From contig JAQVMW010000008.1 in NCBI GenBank assembly GCA_028703445.1, positions 6,223 through 70,222 of the forward strand: a stretch of 64,000 bases of DNA. Reading direction: 5' to 3'. The notes under the pieces were generated by a model. The model did not search any database, was not told where the DNA came from, and saw only the letters and a program-made list of their open reading frames with translations. Of this stretch, positions 3,205-61,705 are shown in pieces. A program made the position numbers and the translations under genes. The DNA comes from Candidatus Peribacteraceae bacterium (GTDB taxonomy: Bacteria; Patescibacteriota; Gracilibacteria; Peribacterales; Peribacteraceae). The stretch's first letter is position 1. Each line of letters starts with the position of its first letter.

Positions 3205-3971
3205 CACCCGATGTTTCCGAACACATGGCCACCCCCGCGGATCACGCACCCGATACCCCCCACGGCAAGAAGCCAAAGGATACCGTGCGCAACCGCAAAG
3301 GACTCTCCAAGGCCCAAACCCAGCGATTCCTCCCCATCGCAGAGATCCGCAACGACACCGTAGTCCTGAAGAACGGGGGACTGCGGGCTGTCCTGGCCGT
3401 GGAGGCGCTGAACTTCAACCTGAAGAGCGAAACAGAGCAAAAAGGCATCATTGCCGGATATCAATCGTTCGTGAATACCATCGACTTCCCCATACAGATC
3501 TCCATCCGCTCGACGAAGATCAACATCGACCCCTACATCGATCAGCTGCGTGTCCGGGCAAAGGAGCAATCGAACGAACTCCTGCGGGATCAGACCGTGG
3601 AGTACGCCAAATTCATCGAGCGCATTGTGGAGGCCGCAGACATCATGCAAAAGCGCTTCTACGTCGTGATCCCCTTAAACGATCATCCTAAACGGAAATC
3701 ACTCATCGCCACGTTCCTCGAGTGGATCGGCATCGATGATTCAACGGGAAAGGCGCTCGCTCGTCACCAAATGTTCGAGAAACGCATCATGCCCCTGCGC
3801 GACCGCATCAATTTGGTGGAGGCCGGCCTCAACAACATCGGCCTGGTCACGCGCCGGCTTTCGACCCGGGAACTCTTGGAGCTCTACTACCAAGTCTATA
3901 ACCCGGGAACCAGCCAGGAGCAGAAACTGAATAAGATCTCGGATTTGAATACGGCAGAGTTGGTACTCTGA
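3201..3971 (+). CDS. Hypothetical protein resembling the N-terminal, non-ATPase region of VirB4/TraC-type proteins
   Basis: The motif IAEIRNDTVVLKNGGLRAVLAVEALNFNLKSETEQKGIIAGYQSFVNTIDFPIQISIRS is typical of the N-termini of CPR VirB4-like proteins. No Walker motifs are present in this 256 aa ORF. Confidence 0.4.
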   Translation: MTPDVSEHMATPADHAPDTPHGKKPKDTVRNRKGLSKAQTQRFLPIAEIRNDTVVLKNGGLRAVLAVEALNFNLKSETEQKGIIAGYQSFVNTIDFPIQISIRSTKINIDPYIDQLRVRAKEQSNELLRDQTVEYAKFIERIVEAADIMQKRFYVVIPLNDHPKRKSLIATFLEWIGIDDSTGKALARHQMFEKRIMPLRDRINLVEAGLNNIGLVTRRLSTRELLELYYQVYNPGTSQEQKLNKISDLNTAELVL

Positions 3972-12087: not shown

Positions 12088-12102
12088 CCTTTATTGAGCG
12101 CC

Positions 12103-14403
12103 TCATTCACACGTAATCCCCAGCCACGTTTTGATGCGCCTGAGGATAATGGCACGACGGGGGGAGGACAGGGGGATCCACTTGTCCACACGGGCACAGA
12201 TGCGCTGGGTGCGTGCTGAAGACAGGGATGAGGATGTCATGCCTCCGGAAGTGACGAGCGTCGAGGGGAGGGAACCCGAACGGAAACGTTGGTGGGAGGA
12301 AGAGGATGAAGCCGAAGATGCGGAGGGACGGAGAGAAGGATTGGTGAGGAGGTGATAGGGATCGAGGGATGAGAAAGAGGAAGCAGAAGAAGCAGAGGAT
12401 GTAGAAGAAGCAGAGGATGTCGAAGATGATGGAGTAGTACCCTCCCACCACTCCACGAAATCTGCGGGGGCGAGGCCGTCTTCGTAGAGGCGGCGCCAGT
12501 AGGTGGCACCGCCACCGGCACCGGGGGTAGCAGAGGCCGTGCTGAGGGTATAGCTGAGCGCCTCGTTGGTGTCTGCATCGTCTGCATTGGTGCCGTCGGT
12601 GCAGGCGATGTATACGGTCTTGGTTCCATCACTTCCGAGGTTGGGGGTTTCGCAGGAGTGGGACTGGGTGCCTCCGCCGGAGCAGAGGGTGTCGTCACTC
12701 ATCTGGGCGTACGTTTCATCACCGTCGAGAGAGAGGCGGCAGGTAGCGTTCTCATCGGTCGTGAAGGTGATGGTCTGGGTGGAATCGGTGATGGTGGAGG
12801 CGGAGGCGGGGGAGAAGCTGGAGGGGACGGGAGGGGTGGTGTCAAACCCCCAATTAACAGTGTTTCCGCCGTCTAAAAGATCAGTATATGTGGGCGTTAA
12901 ACCGCCGGAAGCGTCTGAATCAGTCACCTCTGCATAATCAATGGCAAAAGTGCCATTGGCAGATAAAGACCACTGATTGCCTGGACTGTCAGAAACAAGA
13001 TTTACCCTGTCATCATCATCAATGCCGTTAATAGTAAGCAATCCTGCGACAGTGATAGTGCCGGCATTATCAAAAGTGAATATTGAATCTGCGGAATCAT
13101 TGGCAGCATCAGTAAAACTAAGATTATAGTAATCCATCATAGCCACGGTGATCGCGGTACCAGTGTAACTAACTGTGCCGGATGTAACACTAAACGCTCC
13201 GGTATCAACGCCATCATATTGAGAAACTGTCACTGGCGTGCCAGTAGCGCGAGACAAGGTAAGAGTATAAATTGAAGGATCAAGTGTTGCACTATATGCA
13301 TTCGTTGTCTGGCCTAAAGTTAAGCCATAAGTAACAGTAGTATCACCACCAAGAGTATAAGTGCAATTTGCGGTAGGTGTCGCGAGATAAGCAATTCTAA
13401 GCATATAATAGCTCGTTCCCGCAATCGTTGTTGCGCCATCACCCCTATAGATAACGGTAATGCTTGTTGAGGTGCTAAAAGCGCCCGTAGGATTGCCACC
13501 AAATGAATTAATCACCACAGGCTGGCCGCCTGTGCTGGCATCTGTGCCAGTTAAAGCAATAATTTTATTTGTTCCTGCAAGCGTTACAACAAATGCATTG
13601 GCTGTTTGGCCTAGAGTAAGAACATTGGTAACCGTAACATTGCCTGCAAGGGTATAGACACGGTCAGCAGTTAAGGCAGCGCCAACGCCAATACCAAGAT
13701 TATAATAGGTGGTAGCTTTAACGTTTTGGGTTAAATTCCTTCTAAAGTTTACCGTATTACCGCTCGCTGTTGCAGTCAGCGTGGGCGTTATAGAACTGGC
13801 TAAATAATTAAGTGTGGAATTCGTCCCTTGCGTCCATGCGCCGGTGCTTCCCATATTTGTAACAGTAGCCGTTCCGTTATTGGTAACAGTTTTTCCTGCG
13901 GCAATTGCGAGAGTGCCCGATAAAGCAATACTGGCTGTGCTGTCTATTGTGTGGTCATCGCTGATTGTTATGGGGGCGGAAATCGTGCCCGAGCCGTAAA
14001 TTGTCTTTGACGCACCGGAAAGTACGATGGCGGTTGCTCCGGAAATTGTGCCATCCACCGTGAGGTCGCCGGCCACGGTAATTCCATTCGTGCTCGTTGC
14101 AATTTCAATGTTTGCGGATGAATCATTTAAATCAACCACTGTCACGCTTCCGGTGTTAATTGTTACAGTGCCCGAACCCGAGTTTGAATCAAAATACACG
14201 CTTCCTGTGCCATCGGGCACGCTTGCCCCTCCGCTTCCACCCGTGCTCGTCGACCAATGCGCCGTGTCGGTCCAATCTCCGGTTCCGCCTATCCAGTAGC
14301 GGTCAGGCGACTCCGCAAAGATAAAACTGGCGTTGTTTAAAAACAACGAGCAAACCAAAACAAAAATACTAATCGATTTCACTGATTTAAAAAATAATCC
14401 CAT
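12103..14403 (-). CDS. Large secreted surface protein: beta-helix/adhesin-like Thr/Gly-rich N-terminal region plus a Ser-rich C-terminal region
   Basis: It has a signal peptide (SIFVLVCSLFLNNASFIFA) followed by DRYWIGGTGDWTDTAHWS. Internal repeats include YTLAGNVTVTNVLTLGQTANA and YTLGGDTTVTYGLTLGQTTNA. There is a poly-Ser tail and a strong GC shift inside the ORF. Confidence 0.8.
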   Translation of the reverse strand: MGLFFKSVKSISIFVLVCSLFLNNASFIFAESPDRYWIGGTGDWTDTAHWSTSTGGSGGASVPDGTGSVYFDSNSGSGTVTINTGSVTVVDLNDSSANIEIATSTNGITVAGDLTVDGTISGATAIVLSGASKTIYGSGTISAPITISDDHTIDSTASIALSGTLAIAAGKTVTNNGTATVTNMGSTGAWTQGTNSTLNYLASSITPTLTATASGNTVNFRRNLTQNVKATTYYNLGIGVGAALTADRVYTLAGNVTVTNVLTLGQTANAFVVTLAGTNKIIALTGTDASTGGQPVVINSFGGNPTGAFSTSTSITVIYRGDGATTIAGTSYYMLRIAYLATPTANCTYTLGGDTTVTYGLTLGQTTNAYSATLDPSIYTLTLSRATGTPVTVSQYDGVDTGAFSVTSGTVSYTGTAITVAMMDYYNLSFTDAANDSADSIFTFDNAGTITVAGLLTINGIDDDDRVNLVSDSPGNQWSLSANGTFAIDYAEVTDSDASGGLTPTYTDLLDGGNTVNWGFDTTPPVPSSFSPASASTITDSTQTITFTTDENATCRLSLDGDETYAQMSDDTLCSGGGTQSHSCETPNLGSDGTKTVYIACTDGTNADDADTNEALSYTLSTASATPGAGGGATYWRRLYEDGLAPADFVEWWEGTTPSSSTSSASSTSSASSASSFSSLDPYHLLTNPSLRPSASSASSSSSHQRFRSGSLPSTLVTSGGMTSSSLSSARTQRICARVDKWIPLSSPRRAIILRRIKTWLGITCE

Positions 14404-18944: not shown

Positions 18945-20216
18945 ATGGATCTCCGTTCCCTTCCTGCCGGCCTGAATCCTGAAGAGCACTGCCGCGAACG
19001 GCGGGCGCGGGTCGAGAACGAAACAGTAACGGACCTTTCGCTCCTCCACACCGATGCCGGACGAATCGGTCAGGCCGACGAGAAGAATTGCGAGCAGATG
19101 ATCGGCTCTGTTCCCCTCCCCGTCGGCATCGCCGGTCCGCTCGCGATTACCTTCAGCTCCGGCGAAAAATCCAACGTCTTCCTTCCTCTTGCCACAACCG
19201 AGGCGGCACTTGTCGCGAGCGTCAATCGCGGATGCAAAGTTCTGTCGACAAGCGGAGGCGTTTCGATAAAATCCGTCTACCATGGCATGTCCCGATCGCT
19301 AGTATTCAAGCCAAAAAACAAGAAAGGACAAACGTTCACCTCCGCAATCAAAACTCTGGAACAAGAATGGAAACGTATCGGCGAGGCGACGAGCGCACAT
19401 CTCAAAATTCTCCGTTACGATCTCGATGAGTCCGACGGCTACACCTTCCTCACGATCTTCTGCGACACCTCGGAGGCCATGGGCATGAACATGACGACGA
19501 TCGCCGCACAAGCCATCGGCAATTTCCTTGCTCAAGAGCTTGATGCCGATCTCATCACCATTGCGGCAAACGTCGACAGCGACAAGAAGCCGAGCAGCCG
19601 CACGCACGACCGCGGCCGGGGATACGAAGTCACCGCGAAAGCGGATATTCCTTCTTCGATCATCGCGAATGTGTTGAAGACGACACCGCAGCAGTTGTGC
19701 GCCGTCGCGGACGCCAAGTTGCGCGTCGGATCCGCACTCGCAGGAGCCATCGGAAGTAATTTGCATGTGGCCAACGTGATCGCGGCTCTGTACCTGGCAA
19801 CGGGACAGGACGGCGCACACGTGGTGGAAGGATCGCTGGCGGATACGAAAATCGTGCCTTTGTGGACCTCTCCCCCACCTCCATCTCCTCCCCCGGTGGG
19901 GGAGGAGCGTCCCTTGATCCCCCTTCCCCCTCCGGGGGAAGGGTTGGGGATGGGGAAGAAACTTGCAGGCATACGAATAGAAGTCCGCCTGCCCGCCCTC
20001 CTCGTCGGCGTTCGCGGCGGCGGAACGGCTCTGCCTGCCCAAAATCAGTGCCTTTCGCTCATCTTAAAACCGCAACGCGGGATGCTTCCCGCGCTGCGGC
20101 GACCGCAGCAACTCGCGGAAACGATCGGCGCGGCCGTCCTCGCCGGGGAATTGAGTCTGCTCGCGGCACAGGCGACACAAACGCTTGCGTCTTCGCACAA
20201 AAAACTGGCACGGTGA
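18945..20216 (+). CDS. hmgA: HMG-CoA reductase, class I type, with an in-frame repeat-derived insertion
   Basis: It carries ENCIG-like EKNCEQMIGSVPLPVGIAGPL, EAALVASVNRGCK, SEAMGMNM, LVGVRGGGT and AVLAGELSL. Confidence 0.9.
   Translation: MDLRSLPAGLNPEEHCRERRARVENETVTDLSLLHTDAGRIGQADEKNCEQMIGSVPLPVGIAGPLAITFSSGEKSNVFLPLATTEAALVASVNRGCKVLSTSGGVSIKSVYHGMSRSLVFKPKNKKGQTFTSAIKTLEQEWKRIGEATSAHLKILRYDLDESDGYTFLTIFCDTSEAMGMNMTTIAAQAIGNFLAQELDADLITIAANVDSDKKPSSRTHDRGRGYEVTAKADIPSSIIANVLKTTPQQLCAVADAKLRVGSALAGAIGSNLHVANVIAALYLATGQDGAHVVEGSLADTKIVPLWTSPPPPSPPPVGEERPLIPLPPPGEGLGMGKKLAGIRIEVRLPALLVGVRGGGTALPAQNQCLSLILKPQRGMLPALRRPQQLAETIGAAVLAGELSLLAAQATQTLASSHKKLAR
19885..19943 (+). repeat. Two tandem C/T-rich-stem hairpins (CCCCTTCCYC-N5-GRGGAAGGGG family) inside the hmgA coding sequence
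   Basis: The first is ctcctcccc cggtg ggggaggag (19885-19907). The second is cccttcccc ctccg ggggaaggg (19921-19943). Relatives lie at 24932-24956, 32098-32120, 32159-32183, 39496-39547 and 39942-39979. Confidence 0.75.
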
Positions 20217-20296: not shown

Positions 20297-20817
20297 CCAG
20301 CGCGGGAAGCTTCCCGCGCTGGAATAGGACAGGAATGATAGATACCCATGACCCAGCGGCACCCTATTCAGAACGGACAGATGATGCTCGTAACAACGAA
20401 CACATGTAACCGCATGCGAATCTTCGTGGATTCCGCTTGCGCACGTCAAGTCATCGAAAGCCTGTACCGTGCACAATTGCATCATCCATTCTTTCTCCAT
20501 GGATTTGTCGTCATGCCGGATCACTGCCACATACTGCTCCATATTCCGGAAAACGGTTCCATCTCAAAAATCATGTATTGCTTCAAGCGATCTGTGTGCT
20601 TTGAGGTGGGAAAACCGATCTGGCAACGACGATTCCATGTCCGTCTTGTCGACAATGCATGGGAAGCTTTGCGTTACATCCACCTGAATCCAGTACGGCA
20701 AGGCATCTGCGAAGCGCCAGCAGATTATCCATGGTCATCCGCTTCTGGACGATGGGATGTCACTGATCTTTCAGAATGGTAATACAACCCAGCGCACGAA
20801 GCTTCGTGCGCTGGGTT
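20297..20817 (+). mobile_element. REP - RAYT - REP unit (REPtron-like)
   Basis: The Y1 transposase gene is flanked by GC-rich palindromes with an AAGCTT core. These lie at 20297-20322 (ccagcgcgggaagcttcccgcgctgg) and 20786-20817 (aacccagcgcacgaagcttcgtgcgctgggtt). Confidence 0.7.
20348..20782 (+). CDS. REP-associated tyrosine transposase (RAYT; IS200/IS605 Y1 HUH family)
   Basis: It has the HUH motif in VVMPDHCHILLH and the catalytic Tyr context ALRYIHLNPVRQG. The 144 aa length fits. Confidence 0.8.
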   Translation: MTQRHPIQNGQMMLVTTNTCNRMRIFVDSACARQVIESLYRAQLHHPFFLHGFVVMPDHCHILLHIPENGSISKIMYCFKRSVCFEVGKPIWQRRFHVRLVDNAWEALRYIHLNPVRQGICEAPADYPWSSASGRWDVTDLSEW

Positions 20818-20836: not shown

Positions 20837-22540
20837 GTGCAGTCCACCTGCAGAAATCCCTGGTGCTCTCAACCCTTCGAAGTCACCAAAGATGACCTCG
20901 CGTTCTACGACAAGGTCAGTCCCATCCTCAATGGGGGAAAATACACTATCCCCCCTCCGACACAGTGTCCCACATGCAGGAGACAGAGGAGACTTGTCTG
21001 GCACAATATCATGAACTTTCATAAGAGAAATTGTGACAGAACCGGAAGAGAAATTCTTTCAAACATCTCACCGGATAAGCCGCTCACAGTGTATGACATC
21101 AACGCGTGGTGGGAGGATTCTTGGGATCAGCATGAAGCAGGTCTTCCTCTTGATTTTCAAAAGACATTTTTCGAACAATTTGCAGAATTGCTTCTGGGAG
21201 CTCCGATACCCAGTCTGCATGCGCAACCATCCACGGACGAGAACTGCACGTACACGAACTACGCGTTATTCAATAAGAACTGCTATTTGATATTCCATGC
21301 AAACGGCAATGAGGATTGCCTGTATGGCTTTGGCGTGAAGTTCAGCAAGAACGCGGTTGATGTATTGAATTCATTCGATTCGGAAATACAGTACGAATGC
21401 ATCGATTGTGAGAAATGTTACAACTTGTACTCCTGCAAGGATTGCGAGAACTGCGCCGACTCGCTGTTCCTCGATGACTGCATCGGATGCAAGAACTGCA
21501 TCGCCTGTCACAACCTCCGCAACGCGGAGTTTTGCATTTTCAATAAGAAAACCTCCAAGCAAGAATTTGAAAAGCTGCGCGCGGCAATCCTGAACGGCTC
21601 GCATGCAACACGCGAGGAATGGAGGAAAGAATTCGAAAGCTTCCTGCTCCAAATGCCCCGACGCGCCACAATGATCCGGCAATGCGAAAATTGTTCGGGC
21701 GATCACCTGTACCGTTGTCAGAACGTTCACGAAAGCTATGACATAAAGGATGTACGGGATGGAAAATTCTTAGACAGAATATTCAATGGGCCAAATAGTG
21801 ATTTGTATGATGTCTACCAATTCGGTGTTAAAGCGGAGATGTGCTACGAGTGCTCGGTGGTGGGCATCAATGCGAACAACGTGTGCTTCAGTGCACTGTG
21901 CAGGAACGAAGTGAGTGACATCCTCTACAGCTTCTTCTGTCAGACATGCAAGCACTGCTTTGGCTGCGTGGGGCTCCACAATCAGGAATACTGCATCCTC
22001 AACAAGCAGTATTCAAAGGAGGACTACGAAACACTTGTGCCGAAGATTATCGAACACATGCAGCAAACCGGCGAATGGGGCGAGTTCTTTCCTGCCGAGC
22101 TGTCACCATTCTCGTACAACGAAACGATCGCACAGGAGCACTTTCCCATGACGCAACGAGAGATTGAGATGCGGGGATGGGAGTGGCGCGACCGGACGGA
22201 TGAGATCCCCAAAGTGAAGAAAACCATCCCAGCCGAAAAACTCCCCGACAACATTGCGGATATCCCCGACGACGTCATTCACTGGGCAATTGAGTGTGAG
22301 ATAACCAAACGACCCTTCCGGGTTACCAAGCAGGAATTGGCATTCTACCGCACAATGAGGCTGCCGGTTCCGCACCTGCATCCCGATGAGCGACACAAGC
22401 GGCGCACAGCAATGAGGAATCCCCGCAGGATCTGGAAGCGCCAGTGCGCAAAGTGCAACAAGCCGATCGAAACCACCTACTCGCCCGAACGACCAGAAAT
22501 TGTGTATTGCGAGGAATGTTATCTGAGGGAAGTGTATTGA
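20837..22540 (+). CDS. Cys-rich family paralog P1 (function unknown)
   Basis: It is 567 aa with 36 Cys by my count and has no signal peptide. The N-terminus is CRNPWCSQPFEVTKDDLAFY...CPTCRRQRRL. The C-terminus is QCAKCNKPIETTYSPERPEIVYCEECYLREVY. It starts at GTG. Confidence 0.9.
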   Translation: MQSTCRNPWCSQPFEVTKDDLAFYDKVSPILNGGKYTIPPPTQCPTCRRQRRLVWHNIMNFHKRNCDRTGREILSNISPDKPLTVYDINAWWEDSWDQHEAGLPLDFQKTFFEQFAELLLGAPIPSLHAQPSTDENCTYTNYALFNKNCYLIFHANGNEDCLYGFGVKFSKNAVDVLNSFDSEIQYECIDCEKCYNLYSCKDCENCADSLFLDDCIGCKNCIACHNLRNAEFCIFNKKTSKQEFEKLRAAILNGSHATREEWRKEFESFLLQMPRRATMIRQCENCSGDHLYRCQNVHESYDIKDVRDGKFLDRIFNGPNSDLYDVYQFGVKAEMCYECSVVGINANNVCFSALCRNEVSDILYSFFCQTCKHCFGCVGLHNQEYCILNKQYSKEDYETLVPKIIEHMQQTGEWGEFFPAELSPFSYNETIAQEHFPMTQREIEMRGWEWRDRTDEIPKVKKTIPAEKLPDNIADIPDDVIHWAIECEITKRPFRVTKQELAFYRTMRLPVPHLHPDERHKRRTAMRNPRRIWKRQCAKCNKPIETTYSPERPEIVYCEECYLREVY

Positions 22541-25007: not shown

Positions 25008-25940
25008 ATGCATACTCCTGACTCCCCCGCCGTCACTGCGCGCTCCCTGGCCCGCCAAAAAAACCGCATGCTTCCAGGCACGTTGCTCTCCTTCACCACC
25101 GTCACCCATCCGCCCAAGGGATTTCCGGATCGCCCGCGCCTGATCGGGCTTATCGAACTCATGGATGGGCAGCGTGTCCTTGGAACACTCGCAGGAGTCA
25201 TGGAACCGAAGATCGGGCAGATGGTGATTCCGCGCATGCACTTGAGCCGCGTGAACGCAGAGGGATTGCGCCTGTACGAAATCGCCTACGAACTCACGGA
25301 GCGTGTGCGCGAACCGGAATCTGAAACAAAGAAATTCCCCGGATACATCCTCGCGCTCACGGGTCCGTCGGGCGTGGGCAAGACCACGGTCTCGCTGCTC
25401 CTGACGAAAATGCTCAGCGATTTCACAACCAAAGTACCCATCGTCACGAGCCGTTCTCCGAAGGAAGGTGATGATCAGGAGTACGACTATGTCACTCCAA
25501 AAGAATTTGAGCGAATGGAGAAGGGCGGAGCACTCGTCGCATGGACACATCTGCCCTCGGACTCAGAACAACGCTCCTACGGATATCGCAAAGCAGATAT
25601 TCTGGCAATTTGGGAGCAGGGCAAGCTGCCGGTCGTGGTGACGGAAATGCATCTGCTGCAGGGACTTGCCGGGCACTATGGACGTCGCTCCATCCTCTCG
25701 TTCGGACTGCTGCCGCCGGGCGAGAGCAAGCGCGCCATGCTCAGCCACCTGCTGCACCGCATGCGTGCCCGAGGTCGCGAAACCGACGCTCAGATCGAGG
25801 AGCGGCTGCTCAATGCCCAGGCGGATTTGGACTACTTCACACGCGCCGCGCACCTGTTCGATTTTGTCCTTGTCAATGAGGATTTGGACGCCGTACTGCA
25901 GGTCATCAAGGGCCATGTTTTGGAGCTTGCGAAAGCCTAG
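25008..25940 (+). CDS. Fusion protein: DUF35-type OB-fold domain (no zinc ribbon) plus guanylate-kinase-like P-loop kinase
   Basis: The N-terminal part is GTLLSFTTVTHPPKGFPDRPRLIGLIELMDGQRVLGTL...IGQMVIP (DUF35 OB pattern). The C-terminal part is ILALTGPSGVGKTT, TSRSPKEGDDQEYDYV and SYGY (Gmk-like). Confidence 0.65.
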   Translation: MHTPDSPAVTARSLARQKNRMLPGTLLSFTTVTHPPKGFPDRPRLIGLIELMDGQRVLGTLAGVMEPKIGQMVIPRMHLSRVNAEGLRLYEIAYELTERVREPESETKKFPGYILALTGPSGVGKTTVSLLLTKMLSDFTTKVPIVTSRSPKEGDDQEYDYVTPKEFERMEKGGALVAWTHLPSDSEQRSYGYRKADILAIWEQGKLPVVVTEMHLLQGLAGHYGRRSILSFGLLPPGESKRAMLSHLLHRMRARGRETDAQIEERLLNAQADLDYFTRAAHLFDFVLVNEDLDAVLQVIKGHVLELAKA

Positions 25941-37138: not shown

Positions 37139-37183
37139 CCCTAACCCTAACCCTAATCCCTAACCCTAATCCCTAACCCTAAA
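37139..37183 (-). repeat. Telomere-like tract; on the transcribed (minus) strand it reads (TTAGGG/ATTAGGG)x7
   Basis: The plus strand reads ccctaaccctaaccctaatccctaaccctaatccctaaccctaaat. The TAG stop of the upstream gene is part of the first TTAGGG unit. Confidence 0.8.
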
Positions 37184-39422
37184 TAATCGGCTCTTCGAAC
37201 TTCTCCTCAATAGACGAAATCTCATCCTCCTCTGGAGGCGCTGCAGCCGCTTCATCCCACTTCTTGAGCATCTCCTCCACGTTCTTCTTCGGCTGGCAGT
37301 ACTTCTTGCGCGAGAGGGCGATGATCTCTTGCGTGTGGTCATCCTTGGGCTTCGGTACATCGACCGTGCGACCTGAAAAGGCCTCGCGAATCTCGCCCTT
37401 CACCGACATCTTCACGTAGAACTCGCGCACACCCAGGTTGATGATGTCACGTTCCTTGAAGATCGGCTCGTACTCCTTCTCGAGCACAACAGCATCCTCC
37501 GCGCCCACGCGGAAACTGATCATGGAACCCACGTTGCCGAAGACCGTCTGCCGGATCCGCGAAGAGAGCTGCCCCATGTACTGGTGGGCAATGGTGAGAT
37601 TGAGATGGTACTTGCGGGCCTCGGAGAGAATCTCGTAGAACGTATCGGTCGCGAAGTTCTGGAACTCATCGACGTAGAAGTAGAAGTCCGACCGCTTCTC
37701 CTCCTCTACGCTCGCCCGACTCATCGCCGCCTGATACATCTTCGTGATGATCATGGAACCGAGGAGTGACGAGTTTTCCTCTCCGAGGAGACCTTTGGAA
37801 ACCTTCATGAGCAGAATTTTCTTGTTATCCATGACATCACGGATGTCGAACCGTGTCGTGGGCTGGCCGATGATGTTGCGGATCATGTTCGTGGCCACGA
37901 ACTGGCCGACTTTGTTGAGGAGCGGCGTGATGGCCTCGGCATCGAACTTTTCGCTCCACGCGGCGAATTCCGAAACCCAGAAGCTCTTCACGACGTTATC
38001 CTGAATGCGCGCCACGATCTTCTGACGGTAGTTCTTGTCATTGAGCATCTTTAAGATAGAGAGCACCGTGGTATTTGGGCTGTCGAGGAGCGCCAACGTG
38101 GTGTAGCGGAGAACGTGCTCAAGACGATACGACCAGTTGTCCCCGAAGAGCTTTTTAAAGATATCAAGGAACCCGATGGTAAGCTGCATCTTGTAGGCCT
38201 CATCCACCTTCGCGAGCGGGTTGAAAGCGATGGGGAACTCCGTGTCCCCCGGATCGAAGAGGATTACGTCGTTGATACGGCTCTTCGGCACGTGCCGGAG
38301 CACGCAGTCGACCAGATCCCCGTGCGGATCGAGCACCGCCACTCCCCTGCCACACTCCAAATCCTCTTTAATGAGGAGCTCCAGGAGCTTTGACTTTCCC
38401 ACACCGGACTTCCCCACCACGTACAGGTGGCGCCGGCGATCCTCCAGGCGCACGCCGAACTTCACGAAATTGTTGTGGTAGTTCGTGATGCCGAACGTGC
38501 TCACCTCCTTCTCGCCGGCACGCGGCAGATCCTGCGGAGGATCTGATTTGCGCGCGAGCACGTGGACGATGTGGTGCACGTAGTCCGCATTCGGCAGATG
38601 GTAGAGCGTGGCGACCTCCGTCGCGCTCAGAATGTATGTGCTCGCATGCCATCGCTCACGGTACCGACGGAGGAATGACGCCACATTCATGTCTTTGGAG
38701 GAGACAAACCCGTTGATATCCGAATCATTGAAATGGTAGAAGCTGTTCTTCACTGCTTCGAGCTTGCGGCTGGCTTCCTCATCACTCTTGCTCAAGTACG
38801 CGCAGCGGATGGATACCCTGAAAGGCTTCGTCTGCTCCTTCTGCCTGGCCGCCTCATAGCGGACGGACTGAATACCTTTGCGACCCTCCTTGCGCAACCG
38901 GTCGCGCACGGAGAAGTACTTCTTCAGGTTCGCGAACTTGAACCGCCAGCTCCGGCGGAAGTGGTAGAGAGCATCGTCGGCATGCGGCTCCACGATGATC
39001 TGCACCCAGACCTGCTCGCCGCTGTCGATCTTCGAGAGCACCGAGAAAAGGCGCGACATCGAGTCCTCTTCGAACTTGTCATACATCTTCACGGGATACA
39101 CGTCCCGCTCTTTGAGCGTGAGCTCGCACCCGGCAAGGTGGTGCTTCTCGGGATGCATCAGTTCCGTGTAATCCTTGGTTTCGCGGATCTCGGCGTCGGG
39201 GAAACTGGCGTAGATCAAACCTTCGATCGTCTCCTTGTACTTCTCATCCATGACCACATAGAAGTACGTGTACTGCTCGTAACCGAAGTACTCGAACGAA
39301 AACCGCTCCTCCGTGACGGTATTGCGAAGGCTCACGAGCAGATCCTGGAATTTGGACTCCAGTTTCCTGTTCTCCTTCTTCCCCTGGGGGACCACGATGT
39401 GGAGGTAACGGAGATTAGCCAT
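37179..39422 (-). CDS. TraD/VirD4-like (T4SS coupling-protein-type) P-loop ATPase
   Basis: It has the Walker A motif VVGKSGVGKSKL and the Walker B-like motif FYFYVDEFQNFAT. The N-terminal domain is typical of CPR 'T4SS DNA-binding domain' proteins. Confidence 0.65.
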   Translation of the reverse strand: MANLRYLHIVVPQGKKENRKLESKFQDLLVSLRNTVTEERFSFEYFGYEQYTYFYVVMDEKYKETIEGLIYASFPDAEIRETKDYTELMHPEKHHLAGCELTLKERDVYPVKMYDKFEEDSMSRLFSVLSKIDSGEQVWVQIIVEPHADDALYHFRRSWRFKFANLKKYFSVRDRLRKEGRKGIQSVRYEAARQKEQTKPFRVSIRCAYLSKSDEEASRKLEAVKNSFYHFNDSDINGFVSSKDMNVASFLRRYRERWHASTYILSATEVATLYHLPNADYVHHIVHVLARKSDPPQDLPRAGEKEVSTFGITNYHNNFVKFGVRLEDRRRHLYVVGKSGVGKSKLLELLIKEDLECGRGVAVLDPHGDLVDCVLRHVPKSRINDVILFDPGDTEFPIAFNPLAKVDEAYKMQLTIGFLDIFKKLFGDNWSYRLEHVLRYTTLALLDSPNTTVLSILKMLNDKNYRQKIVARIQDNVVKSFWVSEFAAWSEKFDAEAITPLLNKVGQFVATNMIRNIIGQPTTRFDIRDVMDNKKILLMKVSKGLLGEENSSLLGSMIITKMYQAAMSRASVEEEKRSDFYFYVDEFQNFATDTFYEILSEARKYHLNLTIAHQYMGQLSSRIRQTVFGNVGSMISFRVGAEDAVVLEKEYEPIFKERDIINLGVREFYVKMSVKGEIREAFSGRTVDVPKPKDDHTQEIIALSRKKYCQPKKNVEEMLKKWDEAAAAPPEEDEISSIEEKFEEPII

Positions 39423-39585: not shown

Positions 39586-40221
39586 ATGCATGAAGAAACG
39601 CACCGCCAGCAAAAACGGAGAAAGCTGCTCTACGCGATGAAGCTCCGCAGTAGAATGACGAAGGCAGAATCTTTGCTCTGGAACGCGCTACGCGGAAAGA
39701 AGTGTGACAGCATGAAGTTCCGTCGCCAGGTACCAATCAGTTGGTTTGTTGTTGATTTTCTGTGCGTCGAAAAACAGCTGATCATCGAACTCGATGGTCC
39801 GATTCATGAAAGGCAAAAATCGTATGATCATGAGCGGGAGAACGAGCTTCGAAGCCGGGGATACCGAATGATACGCTTCAAGAACGATCAAGTGCTTCAT
39901 GCATTGCCAACAGTGCTCAATGAAATACGCGATGCGGCTCTCCTCTCTCCCTACGGATGTCGGGATGGGGGGAGAGGGGCTGGGGGTGAGGAAAATTTCA
40001 ATAGACTTCCTTCAAATAGCACTCCTCACAATAGACGATCTCGGGTCGGTCGGGAGCGTACGTTGTCTGTATTTCTTTCTGGCATTTCATGCACGCTCTT
40101 TTCCAGAGCTTGCGGGGATTGCGGAGTGCAAGACGACGGTCGTAGCGTTCATCGGGGTGGAGACGCGGCACAGGAATCTTCTGTCGACGGTAGAAATCGA
40201 GCTCCTGCTTCAGAATCCTGA
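39586..40221 (+). CDS. DUF559 endonuclease-domain protein; the ORF runs on through a repeat and into the antisense of P2
   Basis: It carries ESLLWNALRGKK...FRRQVPISWFVVDFLCVEKQLIIELDGPIHE...RGYRMIRFKNDQVL. The recognisable domain ends near 39930. The rest is probably read-through. Confidence 0.6.
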   Translation: MHEETHRQQKRRKLLYAMKLRSRMTKAESLLWNALRGKKCDSMKFRRQVPISWFVVDFLCVEKQLIIELDGPIHERQKSYDHERENELRSRGYRMIRFKNDQVLHALPTVLNEIRDAALLSPYGCRDGGRGAGGEENFNRLPSNSTPHNRRSRVGRERTLSVFLSGISCTLFSRACGDCGVQDDGRSVHRGGDAAQESSVDGRNRAPASES

Positions 40222-41695: not shown

Positions 41696-41701
41696 TTTAT
41701 C

Positions 41702-41729
41702 GTAGCGGAAGATCGCGATCTTCCGCTAC
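41702..41729. repeat. 28-bp perfect palindrome gtagcggaagaTCGCGAtcttccgctac between P3 and P2
   Basis: It is identical to the copy at 49612-49639. Confidence 0.85.
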
Positions 41730-41739
41730 AGGACATGAC

Positions 41740-44006: not shown

Positions 44007-44768
44007 ATGCAAGCATCCGATCTTCTGGACTTTGGCCTCACAAAAGATGAGGCGTGTGTGTACCTCGCGCTCTTGGAACTGGGCGGCTCATATGTGAGCG
44101 CAATTGCCAAGAAGTCCGGCATTCACCGCGTTGTCTGTTATAAAATTCTGGATGACTTGGTAGGGAAAGGACTGGTCAGCAGCTTCCTCAAGAACAAGGT
44201 GAAGCACTTCGCAGTGGAGAGTCCGCAAATCCTGGTACGCCGCCAACAGGAGAAACTCGATAAAGCCAAAAAGATCCTCCCTGAACTCCTATCCATCACT
44301 AATGCACTCGCCTACAAACCGAAGATCCAGTATTACGAAGGGCTGGAGGGTATGAAGAACATCTTTGAAGAGACACTCACCGCCCAGAGCGAGCTCCTCG
44401 GTTACACGAATCTGGAAGACATCCCCAAAGTCATTCCGGAGGAATTTTTGCGTGACTATGCCAAGCGCAAGATCGCGAAAGGCCTCAAAACACGCATGCT
44501 TTCGCCTCACACGCCACGGGCACTCAAGTACCTGGAGAAGTATTATCCGAGGGGATTTGATCCGAATCTGGTCGAAATCCTCTTCGTGAACCCACGTGAA
44601 TTCCACTTTGAGTACGAAATCACGATCTACGGCGAGAAAGTGGCGATCCTCTCCCTCAATTCGGAGGAACGCATGGGGCTGATCATCGAGAGTCCGATCT
44701 ACGCGCGCACGCAGCGTGCGGTCTTTCAGCTGGCGTGGCTCGGAGCGACGAGCTTCGTGGCAAAGTAA
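44007..44768 (+). CDS. TrmB-family winged-helix transcriptional regulator
   Basis: It carries DLLDFGLTKDEACVYLALLELGGSYVSAIAKKSGIHRVVCYKILDDLVGKGLVS. It is a paralog of 60950-61705, and both end AWLGAT(S/A)FVAK. Confidence 0.8.
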   Translation: MQASDLLDFGLTKDEACVYLALLELGGSYVSAIAKKSGIHRVVCYKILDDLVGKGLVSSFLKNKVKHFAVESPQILVRRQQEKLDKAKKILPELLSITNALAYKPKIQYYEGLEGMKNIFEETLTAQSELLGYTNLEDIPKVIPEEFLRDYAKRKIAKGLKTRMLSPHTPRALKYLEKYYPRGFDPNLVEILFVNPREFHFEYEITIYGEKVAILSLNSEERMGLIIESPIYARTQRAVFQLAWLGATSFVAK

Positions 44769-47066: not shown

Positions 47067-47864
47067 CTACGCTCCGACACCGTTACTCCACATACGCTCG
47101 AACTGATCGCGATAGAGCGCCACAAGCTCCGGATGCCGGATAATGATCACGCGCGGATTTCCCCTGTCGCAGATGAAGTGGCGCACGTGATCTTTGGTGT
47201 ACCCCAGGTAATTCCTGGCAACGGGGATCGTGTCCACGAGACGCGTGGTACGCAGCTCCTTACTATCCCGCTTGGCAAATGTCTCGGATTCGGGTGAGTG
47301 CGTATTGAAGACGCGGCAGAACATGTTTCGACTGAAGCGTTTATGACGAAACGCCAGCTCCTCAGATGCCTCGTCGGACATGCCGGCAACATCCCAATAA
47401 TTCTGCATAGACCCCATGCACAGAAACTCGTCATCACAGAGATCGGGAATCTTGAGGTACTCCTCGCGAAACGCATCCAGGCCTTCCCTGAGTTCGACCG
47501 GCTCATGCTCCGTTTTCCCATCCGCATCGCGGGTGAGATCCGCGAACGGGAGCAAATGATCCAGATCCTGCAGGGCCAGCTGTACCTTGCGCAGCGACCG
47601 CTGCTCCTGATCGAGTTTGTGAATGAGTGCCTTGAGCGTGAGCGGCGCATACACGCTCTGCTTCTGGTTGATGCTGAACGCCTGCACCAGCCCGCGCTCG
47701 GTGAGGCGCTTGATGGTGCGGTAGGCGGTCATGATATTGAGCCCCGATTCCGCGATGAGCTCCGTCATCGAGGCACGCCGGAGCTTAAGCAAATGGAGAT
47801 ACAGGGTGACCTCCTCGTCCTTGAGACCAGCCAGACTAAGAAGATGTTGGAGCTTGCGACGCAC
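47067..47864 (-). CDS. TrmB-like transcriptional regulator (divergent member)
   Basis: It has the N-terminal wHTH LKDEEVTLYLHLLKLRRASMTELIAESGLNIMTAYRTIKRLTERGLV. It starts at GTG. Confidence 0.7.
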   Translation of the reverse strand: MRRKLQHLLSLAGLKDEEVTLYLHLLKLRRASMTELIAESGLNIMTAYRTIKRLTERGLVQAFSINQKQSVYAPLTLKALIHKLDQEQRSLRKVQLALQDLDHLLPFADLTRDADGKTEHEPVELREGLDAFREEYLKIPDLCDDEFLCMGSMQNYWDVAGMSDEASEELAFRHKRFSRNMFCRVFNTHSPESETFAKRDSKELRTTRLVDTIPVARNYLGYTKDHVRHFICDRGNPRVIIIRHPELVALYRDQFERMWSNGVGA

Positions 47865-49605: not shown

Positions 49606-49611
49606 TCTATC

Positions 49612-49639: not shown

Positions 49640-49649
49640 GGGACACGAC

Positions 49650-60507: not shown

Positions 60508-60555
60508 AACAGTGCTATGTTAACCTGTGACTATTAACAATTGACCATTAACTTT

Positions 60556-60930: not shown

Positions 60931-60949
60931 CTGTTAATTGTTATCAGTT

Positions 60950-61705
60950 ATGCTTACCGATCTCCTCAAACTCGGCCTCAGCGATGAAGAAGCCAAAGTC
61001 TACCTCGCCTGCCTCGAAGTGAACGGCGGAGCGGTTTCCGTCATCGCGCGCAAAGCCGGAGTGCACCGCGTCAGCTGCTACCACACGCTGGAGAAGCTGC
61101 TCCAGAAAAAACTCCTGAGCCAGTACAACCGAAACGGCATCAAGTGCTTCGCTCCCGAGCCGCCCGAGCGCCTGCAGGAGCTGGAGCTTGAAAAGGTGAA
61201 CATTGCGAAGTCGCTCATCCCCGATCTCAAGGCGCTCTTAAGCCCCCACGGGTTCCGTCCCAAAATCCGCTCGTACGAAGGGCGCGACGGCGTCGAGCGC
61301 GTGTTTCTGGAATCCCTTTCTGCTAAAGGGGAACTTCTCGGCTACACCAACTTAAAACAGGTCACGGAATTCTTTCCGGAATTCTTTCGCGAGTACACCA
61401 AAAAGCGCTTCGAGCGCCGTATCAAAGCGCGCTACCTCTCGCCCAACACCGTCGAGAGCGTAAAGGCAATCGAGCCGTTCCTGCCGAAGAACTACGATCC
61501 GTCCCTCATCGAAATCCTGCTCGTGAATCGCGAGCAGTTCCCCTTCGATACCGAGATCCTGCTCTTCGGCAATGCCGTTGGGGTGGTCTCGCTCAATCCC
61601 GACGAGCTCCTGGGGATCATCGTGGAAAGCGCCACGTTCACGAAGACGATGAAGGCGGTCTTCGACCTGGCGTGGCTCGGCGCGACGGCTTTCGTGGCGA
61701 AATAA
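60950..61705 (+). CDS. TrmB-family winged-helix transcriptional regulator
   Basis: It carries MLTDLLKLGLSDEEAKVYLACLEVNGGAVSVIARKAGVHRVSCYHTLEKLLQKKLLS. It is collinear with 44007-44768. Confidence 0.8.
   Translation: MLTDLLKLGLSDEEAKVYLACLEVNGGAVSVIARKAGVHRVSCYHTLEKLLQKKLLSQYNRNGIKCFAPEPPERLQELELEKVNIAKSLIPDLKALLSPHGFRPKIRSYEGRDGVERVFLESLSAKGELLGYTNLKQVTEFFPEFFREYTKKRFERRIKARYLSPNTVESVKAIEPFLPKNYDPSLIEILLVNREQFPFDTEILLFGNAVGVVSLNPDELLGIIVESATFTKTMKAVFDLAWLGATAFVAK

Follow-up and report, generated by a model that had tools for sequence, protein, structure and literature searches.

Duplicated zinc-finger modules and a predicted tandem beta-solenoid in a protein family of Peregrinibacteria/Gracilibacteria

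The locus and its gene family

The stretch of DNA analysed here, in the following called the window, comprises 64,000 nt and comes from a small-genome groundwater bacterium (Peregrinibacteria). It holds eleven paralogs of one protein family, with genes of about 1.7 kb that together span about 19 kb. P1, the protein under study, is encoded on the plus strand (20837..22540; 567 aa, GTG start, stop codon at 22538-22540) as a lone family copy within a mevalonate gene cluster. The other ten are located on the minus strand at 39998-60357. From the head of this array these are P2 (58681-60357), P3 (56990-58684), P4 (54925-56598), P5 (53094-54794), P6 (51309-52985), the divergent P7 (49650-51302), which lacks the N-terminal zinc site 1 described below, P8 (47914-49605), P9 (44775..46457), whose N-module keeps the full CxxC-x17-CxxC motif, and finally P10 (41740-43389) and P11 (39998-41695), the penultimate and the last array gene before an ATPase gene. 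The start of P3 is not firmly placed; its first candidate start codon overlaps the stop codon of P2 as ATGA.

The gene directly downstream of the array, V (37179..39422, minus strand), codes for a 747-aa soluble ATPase of the VirB4/VirD4/HerA superfamily. Three genes encode TrmB-like proteins: T1 (44007..44768, plus strand), a winged-helix protein gene transcribed divergently from the P10-P11-V block, T2 (47067..47864, minus strand), which lies within the array and codes for a second TrmB-like protein of divergent sequence, and T3 (60938..61705, plus strand), transcribed divergently from the array head. The window also contains a gene of a type IV secretion system (T4SS), PrgI/VirB3-like, at 2554-3204, and an Rfam search over the window returned a tRNA-Gly alone. 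For three small ORFs (43420-43881, 46474-46941 and 56591-56986), 77 related loci yielded no homologue, and they were therefore not counted as parts of the array. Searches with Pfam, NCBIfam and PADLOC gave nothing for two small intra-array ORFs, for the N-domain of V or for the C-domain of the TrmB-like proteins.

At 50 % identity the family falls into more than 5,600 clusters. It is found exclusively in Peregrinibacteria/Gracilibacteria, and every copy is annotated as "hypothetical". Its genes lie in co-directional arrays, which are usually long. No entry in Pfam, NCBIfam or PDB covers the 390-aa body of these proteins, and a literature search on the Pfam and TIGRFAM accessions and on cysteine-rich, zinc-ribbon or paralogous proteins of Peregrinibacteria yielded no description of the family. 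The sole published remark found is the 'transcription factor??' entered by the annotators in 2016 in the supplementary gene table of P. riflensis. The cysteine-rich proteins discussed for Peribacter in print do not belong to it; they are secreted and nearly all 1,000-3,800 aa long (two have 580 and 663 aa). The family is previously undescribed and specific to Peregrinibacteria/Gracilibacteria.

Since orthologues are 60-92 % identical and paralogs at most 47 %, the paralogs are, judged by sequence divergence, ancient. The dN/dS values of 0.05-0.08 (about 0.06) indicate purifying selection. A recent amplification or a homogenisation of the array by gene conversion was rejected, because paralog DNA is no more than 60-80 % identical and every paralog has orthologues in other genomes to which it is closer. 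An origin from phages or mobile elements was likewise discarded, as no family relatives were found in IMG/VR or among GenBank phages.

Terminal modules and their zinc sites

P1 is predicted to be a cytoplasmic protein, as neither a signal peptide nor a transmembrane (TM) segment was found. All parts given in the following are on the plus strand. The N-module consists of two fingers. The first (20837..21016, aa 1-60) carries a zf_Tbcl-like Cys4 site (C5/C10/C44/C47, N site 1) followed by an Arg-rich helix (CRRQRRL), the second (21017..21121, aa 61-95) is degenerate in P1, where C66 is retained and C69/C87/C90 are replaced by T, D and A. In the C-module, the first finger (22283..22426, aa 483-530) is degenerate and strongly basic (+6), with C487 retained and T490/H515/E518 in place of Cys. 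Its second finger (22427..22537, aa 531-567) has the sequence CAKC-x17-CEEC, is both zf_Tbcl_2/TIGR04272-like and LIM-finger-like, and leads into the conserved C-terminus CYL(K/R)EVY.

A preliminary description of this DNA had proposed that the two ends of the protein are homologous, and profile comparison bears this out. In an hhalign comparison based on a 70-sequence family alignment, the N slice (aa 1-95) matched the C slice (aa 480-567) with a probability of 99.6 % (E 3e-24, 77 columns, 34 % identity); the 11 window paralogs alone gave 99.2 % (E 1.4e-19). The score of 126 is far above that of 60 column shuffles (11.4±2.3, max 19.5) and of the reversed profile (18.5). In the AlphaFold model, furthermore, the secondary-structure elements follow each other in identical order in both modules. 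These comparisons support an ancient duplication which put one module of ~80 aa at each end of the protein.

The spacing CxxC-x17-CxxC at the C-terminus is exact, with 17 residues between the pairs C537/C540 and C558/C561. All four cysteines of this C site 2 are present in 469 of the 484 aligned family members, those of N site 1 in 430 of 484. The CxxC-x17-CxxC of N site 2 is complete in 111 of 484 members (23 %), paralogs P5 and P9 included, and its residues C69/C87/C90 are kept or lost together (phi 0.99-1.0). C site 1 (Cys4 at 487/490/515/518) is complete in 80 of 484. Judged from this distribution of cysteines, each terminal module originally held two Cys4 sites, zf_Tbcl and zf_Tbcl_2, in the order zf_Tbcl-type Cys4 site, Arg-rich helix and zf_Tbcl_2-type CxxC-x17-CxxC site; reciprocal decay then left site 1 in the N copy and site 2 in the C copy. 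Most likely, zinc structures these two caps alone.

Both modules had also been described as basic, with Arg-rich helices adjoining zinc ribbons. Such helices are indeed present, and the first half of each module is basic (net charge +2.6 in the N-module, +6.3 in the C-module), but over its full length the protein is acidic (-7). The solenoids described below are acidic as well.

The suggested likeness of the terminal motif to TIGR04272 holds as a relationship, although P1 itself stays below both curated cut-offs, with 18.6 bits for the whole protein and 23.4 bits for the isolated C-module against PF23477 (cut-off 27 bits) and 14.6 bits against TIGR04272 (cut-off 36). PF23477 is passed by relatives, among others P0027 (36.8 bits) and P0020 (35.3 bits), and a zf_Tbcl_2-type match at E<=0.01 is found in 57 of 70 members. 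The N-module of P1 gives 10.3 bits against PF13451 (cut-off 24), which is passed at aa ~4-50 by the relatives P0083 (34.7), P0104 (26.6) and P0056 (24.0). Relatives of P1 hence pass the Pfam thresholds exactly at the terminal modules. Like these modules, proteins of PF13451, PF23477 and TIGR04272 have a zf_Tbcl Cys4 finger and, after it, a CxxC-x17-CxxC finger with identical motif spacing. However, proteins of PF13451 and PF23477 lack the 390-aa body, whereas in the P1 family the finger pair occurs twice, flanking that body, and one site per pair is usually degenerate. Among the TIGR04272-type proteins likened to the terminal modules are zinc-binding small proteins of Methanosarcina mazei; for the CxxC-x17-CxxC motif of Methanosarcina small proteins bound zinc was detected by ICP-MS (PMC12704099).

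By sequence, the last finger comes closest to a LIM finger (family profile against PDB chains, E 9e-4 over 30 residues). On P1, the LIM profile PF00412 is matched at positions 28-57 alone, that is its second finger, with 20.3 bits and thus under the cut-off of 22.9. The second LIM finger of CRP1 (PDB 1ctl/1b8t) aligns with the C-terminal motif CAKCGK..E.T......IYC..CY. A LIM domain, however, consists of two contiguous zinc fingers within ~55 aa, and P1 matches half of it, lacking a first C2HC finger in LIM register. Treble-clef geometry common to both, and not descent, may account for the resemblance. LIM fingers are protein-binding modules.

The duplicated core and the conserved junction

Between the modules lies a core of two units, A (21173..21589, aa 113-251) and B (21626..22048, aa 264-404). 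Unit A was delimited by hhalign, the AlphaFold model and periodicity, its tandem duplicate B by hhalign and shuffle controls. The two align with a probability of 99.9 % (E 3.6e-34, 136 columns, 27 % identity) and a score of 202, against 13.3±3.8 for shuffles, so that hhalign recovers both repeats of the protein, terminal modules and core, with controls far lower. A unit of ~140 aa was thus, on sequence evidence, duplicated in tandem, separately from the duplication of the terminal modules. The end-blocks that the preliminary description quoted for the two halves are present as written. Unit A has the order helix, ladder solenoid (~8 coils with 12 residues each, built on (N/D)-(C/S)-x), beta-hairpin (DCIGCKNCIAC...FCIFN) and helix; in unit B the ladder is more degraded and the terminal block reads CKHCFGCVGLHNQEYCILNKQYSKEDYETL.

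The core had been thought to be built from units of ~20 residues. This repeat length has to be corrected, as the non-Cys profile shows periods of 12 and 24 residues (0.17 each) and nothing at 20. Cysteines are restricted to a strict 3-residue register (autocorrelation +0.69 at lag 3, with peaks at all multiples of 3 and negative values off-register). Positions of this register are occupied by C, S, A, T, V or L, the preceding residue is N or D and the following one is variable. The (N/D)C motif itself was found as proposed, with, for example, N in 81 % of the sequences at position 148 and D in 76 % at position 160. The AlphaFold model of P1 (pLDDT 88.4, pTM 0.88) has short beta bridges 6 or 12 residues apart; its confidence is lowest in the solenoid (pLDDT 70-79) and highest in the junction (pLDDT 93-98). 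The solenoid-like fold that had been suspected is thus backed by the 12-residue periodicity, by regular beta bridges and by beta-helix proteins as weak Foldseek matches, and each core unit is modelled as helix, beta-solenoid with 12 residues per coil, hairpin and helix.

The idea of a metal-stapled ladder was not supported, since the ladder cysteines swap freely and singly with Ser, Leu, Val or Ala across the family and hardly co-vary: phi does not exceed 0.37, and i/i+6 pairs even show anti-correlation (phi -0.30 to -0.46), in contrast to the values of 0.99-1.0 for the zinc site residues C69/C87/C90. By this pattern they behave as replaceable residues and not as obligate metal ligands. Both Cys4 metal sites and disulfides like those of the beetle antifreeze protein TmAFP were ruled out for the ladder by co-variation and substitution analysis. 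This analysis applies to positions that vary; the near-invariant core cysteines C218, C221, C377 and C386 are outside its reach and could bind a metal.

In the 12-residue helix of beetle antifreeze proteins every third residue points inward (PMC8038014), and by analogy with this pattern the ladder cysteines of P1 probably pack in the solenoid interior. TmAFP (PDB 1EZG) is a right-handed beta-helix with 12-residue coils TCTxSxNCxxAx, of which C2, S5, C8 and A11 are directed inward. It shares with the P1 core, at the level of sequence pattern, the 12-residue period, small residues at every third position and the C/S/A alphabet, and a TmAFP-like pattern would give the P1 core a very narrow solenoid. 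Yet TmAFP is secreted, whereas P1 is predicted to be cytoplasmic, lacks the TxT ice-binding face in its core and has N or D before the register residue. The i/i+6 cysteines, obligate disulfide partners in TmAFP, are anti-correlated in the P1 family. There was no sequence match of P1 to TmAFP, and 1EZG is absent from the best 50 of 72 Foldseek matches (E<=10).

Against PDB and BFVD, the P1 model had no Foldseek match at E <= 1e-3. Weak matches of the core were to beta-helix proteins alone (E >= 0.1, probability <= 0.06, TM about 0.1), and the sole solved class returned was that of the left-handed beta-helix acyltransferases and gamma-carbonic anhydrases (LpxA, LpxD, Cam). These hexapeptide-repeat proteins, however, have 18-residue coils and the motif [LIV]-G-x-x-[STAV]-x, which is absent from the P1 core with its period of 12; the Pfam family Hexapep gave no match in P1. 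In PDB profile searches with the whole protein, core, junction and N-module, the LIM finger remained the sole match and the rest was noise (E 0.03 for a urea transporter, about 1 for Rev). Pfam, NCBIfam and PADLOC, run on the whole of P1 and per module, gave sub-threshold zinc-finger matches and none for core or junction.

The junction (22049..22171, aa 405-445) carries the block EWGEFFP...SPF.YNET.AQE.FP.T and is followed by a variable acidic linker (22172..22282, aa 446-482), recognized by conservation and charge. The longer linker sequence GEWGEFFP..SPF.YNET.AQEYFPLT had been called invariant. It does belong to the best-conserved block (aa 390-445, mean entropy 1.53 bits), and apart from the cysteines no segment of the family is better conserved than the junction, but within the 11 paralogs G415, Y427, E429 and A432 alone are invariant. 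Conserved across the family is also the C-terminal region including the extreme C-terminus. Identities among orthologues and among paralogs are 0.74 and 0.54 for the junction and 0.76 and 0.65 for the C-terminal finger, 0.87 and 0.39 as well as 0.82 and 0.34 for the two solenoids, and 0.84 and 0.27 for the third position of the (N/D)-(C/S)-x triplets.

Neighbouring genes and possible function

V has the fold of TrwB, VirB4 and HerA, with VirB4/TrwK as best full-length fold match. It contains a TrwB-like P-loop ATPase domain with an all-alpha insertion, matches Pfam T4SS-DNA_transf and TrwB_AAD_bind above cut-offs, and in Foldseek gives E 1.5e-8 and a target-normalised TM of 0.52-0.60 with TrwB. 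The NCBIfam TraD/VirD4 models score 39-50 bits, with cut-offs of 250-650. Type IV coupling proteins have an N-terminal TM anchor. No hydrophobic segment and hence no such anchor was found in V, which instead has a soluble N-domain of 320 aa (PF26449 in precomputed annotations). The usual context of coupling proteins, virB4 and a relaxase, is absent near V, and PrgI, the T4SS-like gene closest to it, lies at a distance of 34 kb. There is a parallel to TrwB/VirD4, to DotL with IcmSW and to XVIPCD effectors, in that an ATPase of VirD4/VirB4 fold is encoded beside a set of family proteins with a common, conserved C-terminal region and differences elsewhere; this comparison concerns a possible working mode, not family membership.

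V is conserved and single-copy (68-93 % identity among the best 120 matches listed). Of the 18 loci with a V-type ATPase, 15 have a co-oriented family gene as its direct upstream neighbour, although the other flanks differ. The arrangement of array and ATPase is also found in the complete genome of Ca. Peribacter riflensis, and synteny of the locus is stably maintained from one genus to another. Among the 74 arrays with a resolved downstream gene, 14 (about a fifth) end in the ATPase; a divergent TrmB-like gene is found upstream in 22 of 68 arrays with a resolved upstream gene (about a third).

As a whole, these data are best explained, albeit tentatively, by a zinc-capped, duplicated solenoid rod that acts as a binding adaptor. 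P1 would be a rigid rod of acidic character, capped at both ends by a basic zinc module. Because all paralogs share a conserved junction and a conserved C-terminal finger, the junction (aa ~390-445) together with this finger could form a constant face which docks on a shared partner; since the solenoid surface is divergent between paralogs and tightly conserved within orthologue lineages, it might provide a separate target for each of the at least 11 paralogs. Our best guess, held with low confidence and drawn entirely from patterns of conservation, is hence a rigid adaptor whose docking end is constant and whose solenoid surface differs from paralog to paralog. The most likely shared partner would be the single-copy soluble VirB4/VirD4-like ATPase at the array end; against this partnership, no more than 14 of 74 arrays end in the ATPase, and lone copies such as P1 are located elsewhere. 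The interspersed TrmB-like regulators would control expression of the array.

Zinc ribbons and treble clefs are frequent among proteins that bind nucleic acids, and P1 could, as the preliminary description had speculated for its Arg-rich helices, bind nucleic acid too, for example as a transcription factor, with these helices gripping DNA or RNA at both ends and the solenoid serving as spacer. The basic first fingers (+2.6 and +6.3), the membership of the neighbouring ATPase in a superfamily of DNA translocases (TrwB, HerA, FtsK) and the same guess in the P. riflensis gene table speak for this, yet the whole protein (-7) and its solenoids are acidic, the intact finger is closest to the protein-binding LIM finger, the arrays already hold dedicated HTH regulators, and the surface that is paralog-specific and orthologue-conserved is the solenoid and not the basic helices. 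We therefore regard nucleic-acid binding as unlikely. With 6-9 % Cys and a CxxCxxCxxC at aa 215-224 that is 82-94 % conserved, P1 might also be a protein of metal clusters, redox reactions or metal buffering, whose Cys ladder binds many Zn ions or Fe-S clusters. This we consider highly improbable, given the single replacement of ladder cysteines with their low phi and anti-correlated i/i+6 pairs, the unequal conservation of equivalent cysteines (0.82/0.94/0.94/0.87 in unit A, 0.73/0.37/0.55/0.99 in unit B) and the lack of a match to any Fe-S or metallothionein family in Pfam and NCBIfam searches.

Two further readings start from the ATPase. T4SS effectors of Xanthomonas carry an XVIPCD domain as C-terminal recognition signal. 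By analogy, the VirD4-like ATPase could recruit the family proteins as effectors for export into a host cell by way of a patescibacterial T4SS, with the conserved C-terminal ~180 aa as the signal; we judge this, signal included, to be quite unlikely. It would agree with the conserved order of family gene and ATPase, the conserved C-terminal region and extreme C-terminus, and the lack of a Sec signal on P1. It is however at odds with an ATPase that has no TM anchor and does not adjoin virB4, and with paralog lineages that are old and under strong purifying selection, unlike many effector repertoires. In addition, rigid solenoid proteins stabilised by zinc would be hard to unfold for passage through a T4SS. 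The genome does hold T4SS genes (the PrgI/VirB3-like gene at 2554-3204), and Patescibacteria depend in an important way on the T4SS for living as epibionts, but orphan T4CP homologues in this group may be exapted (PMC12102498). Alternatively, the paralogs could be sensors or decoys for different invaders in a defence or counter-defence module, with the HerA-like ATPase as motor, comparable to SIR2-HerA and DUF4297-HerA systems. Arrays of many paralogs are typical of conflict systems. The ATPase shows weak PADLOC matches to mad8 (E 1.6e-12) and HerA models and is placed by Foldseek near HerA defence complexes (E 1e-5 to 1e-4), whereas P1 and P7 have 0 matches in PADLOC-DB 2.0, the array shows neither a nuclease nor any other effector domain, the locus is syntenic between genera and not island-like, the paralogs are ancient and conserved, and no relatives were found on phages or viral contigs. 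Such a conflict module appears very doubtful.

Returning to the adaptor, its most far-reaching form would be that arrays, ATPase and TrmB-like regulators constitute an unrecognised system of Peregrinibacteria/Gracilibacteria, in which at least 10 ancient zinc-capped solenoid adaptors, differing in specificity, would each bring a different client to an exapted motor. The clients would be host-derived protein or nucleic acid, and the motor of the soluble VirB4/VirD4 type. We rate this extension of the adaptor reading as rather improbable; if true, its solenoid would also represent a new class of beta-helix, cytoplasmic and with a Cys/Ser ladder of 12-residue coils.

The reciprocal decay of the zinc sites and a cytoplasmic solenoid with a 12-residue Cys/Ser ladder are relevant to protein evolution and design. 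With the domain map, the distinction of a constant from a paralog-specific surface and a candidate partner ATPase, the family is now experimentally approachable. Peregrinibacteria/Gracilibacteria are uncultivated and host-dependent, and the Peregrinibacteria genomes examined have 1.0-1.4 Mb. In so small a genome at least 10 old paralogs of 1.7 kb under strong purifying selection are costly, which argues that the family does something central. Should the arrays, the ATPase and the regulators indeed form one system, this would be a major and lineage-defining part of the machinery on which the host-dependent lifestyle of the small-genome Peregrinibacteria/Gracilibacteria is based.

Terminal modules and their zinc sites

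The ORF of P1 was verified at 20837..22540 (+); it starts with GTG and encodes 567 aa. By tblastn of its product ten further full-length copies (P2 to P11, here called the array) were found in the window, each with 29–47 % identity to P1; all are encoded on the minus strand, at 39998–60357. From 34 to 52 cysteines occur per protein in the eleven copies (6–9 %), and the pI is 5.8–7.4. None of the eleven has a signal peptide or hydrophobic segment, and on this sequence criterion the proteins are likely cytoplasmic. We rate P1, on its predicted structure, as a zinc-finger-capped beta-solenoid repeat protein, and we are highly confident of the domain map and its two duplications.

Both duplications had been proposed in the preliminary description and are borne out by profile–profile comparison. 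The N-terminal module (aa 1–95) matches the C-terminal one (aa 480–567) at 99.6 % and E 3e-24 in a 70-sequence alignment (77 columns, 34 % identity), and with the eleven window paralogs alone the probability is still 99.2 % (E 1.4e-19). The score of 126 compares with 11.4±2.3 for column-shuffled controls (maximum 19.5, n=60) and 18.5 for a reversed profile. Core unit A (aa 113–251) matches unit B (aa 264–404) at 99.9 % and E 3.6e-34 over 136 columns with 27 % identity, scoring 202 against 13.3±3.8 in shuffles. Comparing the N-module with unit A and the C-module with unit B yielded scores of only 12–13, therefore Cys-richness alone is not the source of the match between the ends. The AlphaFold2 model, built with the 70-sequence alignment (mean pLDDT 88.4, pTM 0.88, no segment below 50), predicts the same order of beta, beta, helix, helix, beta, beta, beta, helix for both modules, while every helix and hairpin of unit A has its counterpart in unit B.

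There are two Cys4 zinc sites in each terminal module rather than one. In site 1, a CxxC...CxxC pair flanks 'F.V...DL.FY...P.P' and an Arg-rich helix comes next; site 2 consists of the CxxC-x17-CxxC motif, which had been described at the end of P1 and is spaced there exactly so (C537, C540, C558, C561). Such a motif was measured to bind zinc by ICP-MS in small proteins of Methanosarcina (PMC12704099). A profile search of PDB sequences with the C-terminal motif matched only the second finger of the LIM domain (E 9e-4), which it resembles. In members above the Pfam curated thresholds, PF13451 (zf_Tbcl) maps to aa ~4–50 and PF23477 (zf_Tbcl_2) to aa ~59–92 and ~528–562; at E <= 0.01, PF23477 is matched by 57 out of 70 members and PF13451 by 9. 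P1 itself misses every curated zinc-finger cut-off in Pfam and NCBIfam. The fingers are known Pfam types, themselves functionally uncharacterised.

Judged by the Cys occupancy of 484 aligned members, the decay of these putative zinc sites is reciprocal between the two copies. The N-module keeps site 1 (complete in 430 members) and has lost site 2 in 77 % (complete in 111, within the window in P5 and P9). The C-module keeps site 2, all four positions being Cys in 469 members, and its site 1 is complete in just 80. Cys 69, 87 and 90 of the N-module are present or absent all-or-none (phi 0.99–1.0), the behaviour that should be expected of a genuine metal site. A separate case is P7 (49650-51302, -), in which Cys is missing at the positions of C10, C44 and C47, leaving an N-module without site 1 (N-terminus MSKTCPVTGLTF…DLHPIARW). 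P7 is only 29–31 % identical to the other copies. Since its orthologues in five other genomes share 62–89 % identity, it represents a conserved sub-lineage rather than a copy in decay.

A predicted solenoid core with a 12-residue period

Both end-blocks quoted earlier for the core are present in P1. The preceding unit of about 20 residues is not: the non-Cys part of the core profile repeats at 12 and 24 residues and gives no signal at 20. Core Cys are confined to a 3-residue register, with an autocorrelation of +0.69 at lag 3 and negative values at all lags off the register. The residues found on the register are C, S, A, T, V, L or I, Ser being the commonest substitute, and the residue before them is N or D. 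Whether one ladder position is Cys says little about the others (phi <= 0.37); the strongest positive pairs are separated by 12 residues, and pairs at i/i+6 show anti-correlation (−0.30 to −0.46). Equivalent positions of unit A and unit B differ in conservation. The model shows the ladder as isolated bridges 6 or 12 residues apart, and the end of unit B as five 4-residue strands with a 6-residue period. Its least confident parts are the ladder regions (pLDDT 70–79), its most confident ones the unit B hairpin and the junction (96–98). This junction (aa 405–445), formerly called an invariant linker, lies in the best-conserved block (mean entropy 1.53 bits, aa 390–445) but is not invariant: only four residues are so among the 11 paralogs.

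The substitutions speak against a metal-stapled core, as ladder Cys are replaceable by other small residues with hardly any co-variation, the near-invariant Cys 218, 221, 377 and 386 lying outside the reach of the co-variation test. The pattern is at odds with a series of Cys4 metal sites and with obligate disulfides. That the family consists of metal or redox proteins, a reading for which the high Cys content would speak, is largely excluded. The pattern fits small residues packing the interior of a narrow solenoid, with an inward orientation suggested by analogy to the beetle antifreeze beta-helix, the closest described geometry. In that helix the side chains follow an out-in-out order, with inward-facing residues at every third position (C2, S5, C8, A11; PMC8038014). 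Period (12), register and residue alphabet agree with the P1 family, whereas disulfide pairing, TxT face and secretion differ, and there is no match in sequence or fold. Foldseek of the P1 model against PDB and BFVD gave no match at E <= 1e-3, the best in PDB being left-handed beta-helix enzymes (E 0.1–1, TM about 0.1); profile searches of PDB sequences with the core or the junction found none.

Family range, paralog age and genomic context

A word-indexed search returned >7,600 matches, the listed ones all named 'hypothetical' or 'zinc-ribbon domain containing'. Among 1.84 billion representatives, searched exhaustively with a profile, 5,611 clusters reached E <= 1e-3 and 2,451 of them E <= 1e-30; almost all are full length (540–580 aa). 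The best 77 loci of GTDB species representatives all belong to Peregrinibacteria, Peribacteria, Gracilibacteria, Abawacabacteria or unclassified Patescibacteria MAGs, and in 56 of them at least two copies point the same way within ±10 kb, the maximum being 11 in 21 kb.

Every window copy has relatives of 60–92 % identity elsewhere and of at most 47 % within its own genome; the paralogs are therefore old. Their DNA identity is only 60–80 %. Orthologue pairs have dN/dS values of 0.05–0.08, with dS near saturation in several pairs; the least saturated one has dS 0.82 and omega 0.059. The solenoids are the best-conserved modules within a lineage and the most divergent between lineages (identity among orthologues vs paralogs 0.87 vs 0.39 for solenoid A, 0.84 vs 0.27 at its third triplet position, 0.82 vs 0.34 for solenoid B). 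The junction (0.74 vs 0.54) and the C-terminal finger (0.76 vs 0.65) are common to all paralogs. Within the array, the stop codon of P2 overlaps the first ATG of P3 as ATGA (58681-58684, -), which suggests translational coupling. A 141-nt stretch that runs from the 3' end of one paralog across the spacer into the 5' end of its neighbour occurs at the P10/P11 and P7/P8 junctions (41645-41785 and 49555-49695); the two versions are 83 % identical, well above the DNA identity elsewhere between paralogs.

P1 is a displaced lone copy within a mevalonate cluster, directly after an IS200-like Y1 transposase gene (20348-20782, +; PF01797, E 8e-9) that separates it from HMG-CoA reductase (HMGR; 18945-20216, +). 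The cluster is otherwise contiguous (GHMP kinase, MDD, HMGR, transposase, P1, HMGS-like, thiolase), and P1 may have been carried or inserted into it. An 81 % identical orthologue in another genome lies within an array adjoining the ATPase gene described below. The HMGR ORF has a proline-rich insert (…PLWTSPPPPSPPPVGEERPLIPLPPPGEGLG…) around aa 290–325, within the catalytic domain. Directly after the HMGS-like and thiolase genes, a 310-aa ORF (25008-25940, +) combines an OB-fold ChsH2_C/DUF35-like domain with a guanylate-kinase-like one in a single protein, an unusual fusion partner since the archaeal thiolase/HMGS complex is scaffolded by a DUF35 protein. An 834-aa SLH and beta-propeller surface protein and a 766-aa protein without Pfam match, both probably of the cell envelope and without relation to the P1 family, are encoded at 9583-14403 (-).

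Clustering of all ORFs from the 77 loci and the window revealed two recurrent neighbours of family arrays. One is a TrmB-like winged-helix protein of ~253 aa (56 copies in 37 sources), found in the window at 44007-44768 (+), 47067-47864 (-) and 60938-61705 (+); its gene is upstream and divergent in 22 of 68 arrays with a resolved upstream gene. The other is a 747-aa VirB4/VirD4-like ATPase (37179-39422, -; 18 sources), which terminates 14 of the 74 arrays whose downstream gene is resolved. In 15 out of 18 sources the gene immediately upstream of it on the same strand belongs to the family, and the opposite flank of the ATPase gene varies from genome to genome. The locus recurs in the complete genome of Ca. 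Peribacter riflensis, bordered as here by DUF4015 and an M23 peptidase; between them come, in order, a 748-aa COG0433 ATPase and seven genes for 550–570 aa with two TrmB-like genes. The sole remark of its authors begins 'C-rich' (PMC4736985 Table S2); the Cys-rich proteins treated in that paper are different, large and secreted, and not this family.

Two small genes lie at the array borders. A DUF559 endonuclease-like ORF (39586-39945, +; PF04480, E 6.5e-35) fills the 575-bp gap between P11 and the ATPase, where other genomes have about 50 bp, and resembles a small selfish element inserted into the operon. Between the array head and the TrmB-like gene at 60938, a four-helix-bundle gene of the 23S rRNA-intervening-sequence type (60541-60930, +; PF05635, E 6e-24) has a 91 % copy in the equivalent position of another locus.

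The ATPase and a possible adaptor role

The best 120 homologues of the ATPase are 68–93 % identical. No hydrophobic segment was found in it, and its scores on TraD/VirD4 models are far under the equivalog cut-offs. Its model (pLDDT 79) matched VirB4/TrwK over the whole length (Foldseek, E 3e-12), and its ATPase domain TrwB, Cag-beta, DotL and HerA (E 1e-8 to 1e-7). Amino acids 1–320 (37179-38140 region) had no match in the Pfam copy searched and are labelled PF26449 in the precomputed annotations of all homologues; this part is predicted to be a soluble alpha/beta domain (pLDDT 84–95) and aligned by Foldseek with the VirB4 N-domain. In a survey that does not mention the P1 family, most patescibacterial VirD4 homologues were not close to virB4 and may be exapted (PMC12102498). 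At 34 kb from this orphan ATPase lie T4SS-type genes: a PrgI/VirB3-like gene (PF12666) and a 256-aa ORF without Pfam match (2554-3971, +), between ClpB and ribosomal protein S1. Ca. P. riflensis has the same order, its second gene giving a weak TraC/VirB4-N-like match.

We give even chances to a functional link between the family and the ATPase. Binding of nucleic acid, including a role as transcription factors, had been considered for the basic ends. Basic charge is confined to the first half of each module (+2.6 in the N-module, +6.3 in the C-module); the remaining parts, from the solenoids to the junction and the linker, are acidic, and the net charge of the protein averages −7. We regard this role as unlikely. 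Export as T4SS substrates, which the kinship of the ATPase might bring to mind, appears quite improbable. Slightly less probable still is a conflict module formed by array and ATPase: multi-paralog arrays would suit it, but no relatives were found in IMG/VR or GenBank phages. The remaining window is ordinary chromosome.

Our literature searches found no earlier description of the 390-aa body, of the layout with its two duplications, of how large and old the paralog arrays are, or of their link to an orphan VirB4/VirD4-like ATPase. Our best overall explanation, which we put at somewhat under even odds, is that these proteins serve as adaptors; the adaptor picture taken as a whole, with all its parts, is more tentative again. 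Zinc would hold the two caps and the ladder would pack the interior, giving a rigid acidic rod with basic caps. Junction and C-terminal finger would form a constant face for a shared partner, for which the single-copy ATPase is the obvious candidate, and the solenoid surface may provide each paralog lineage with a target of its own.
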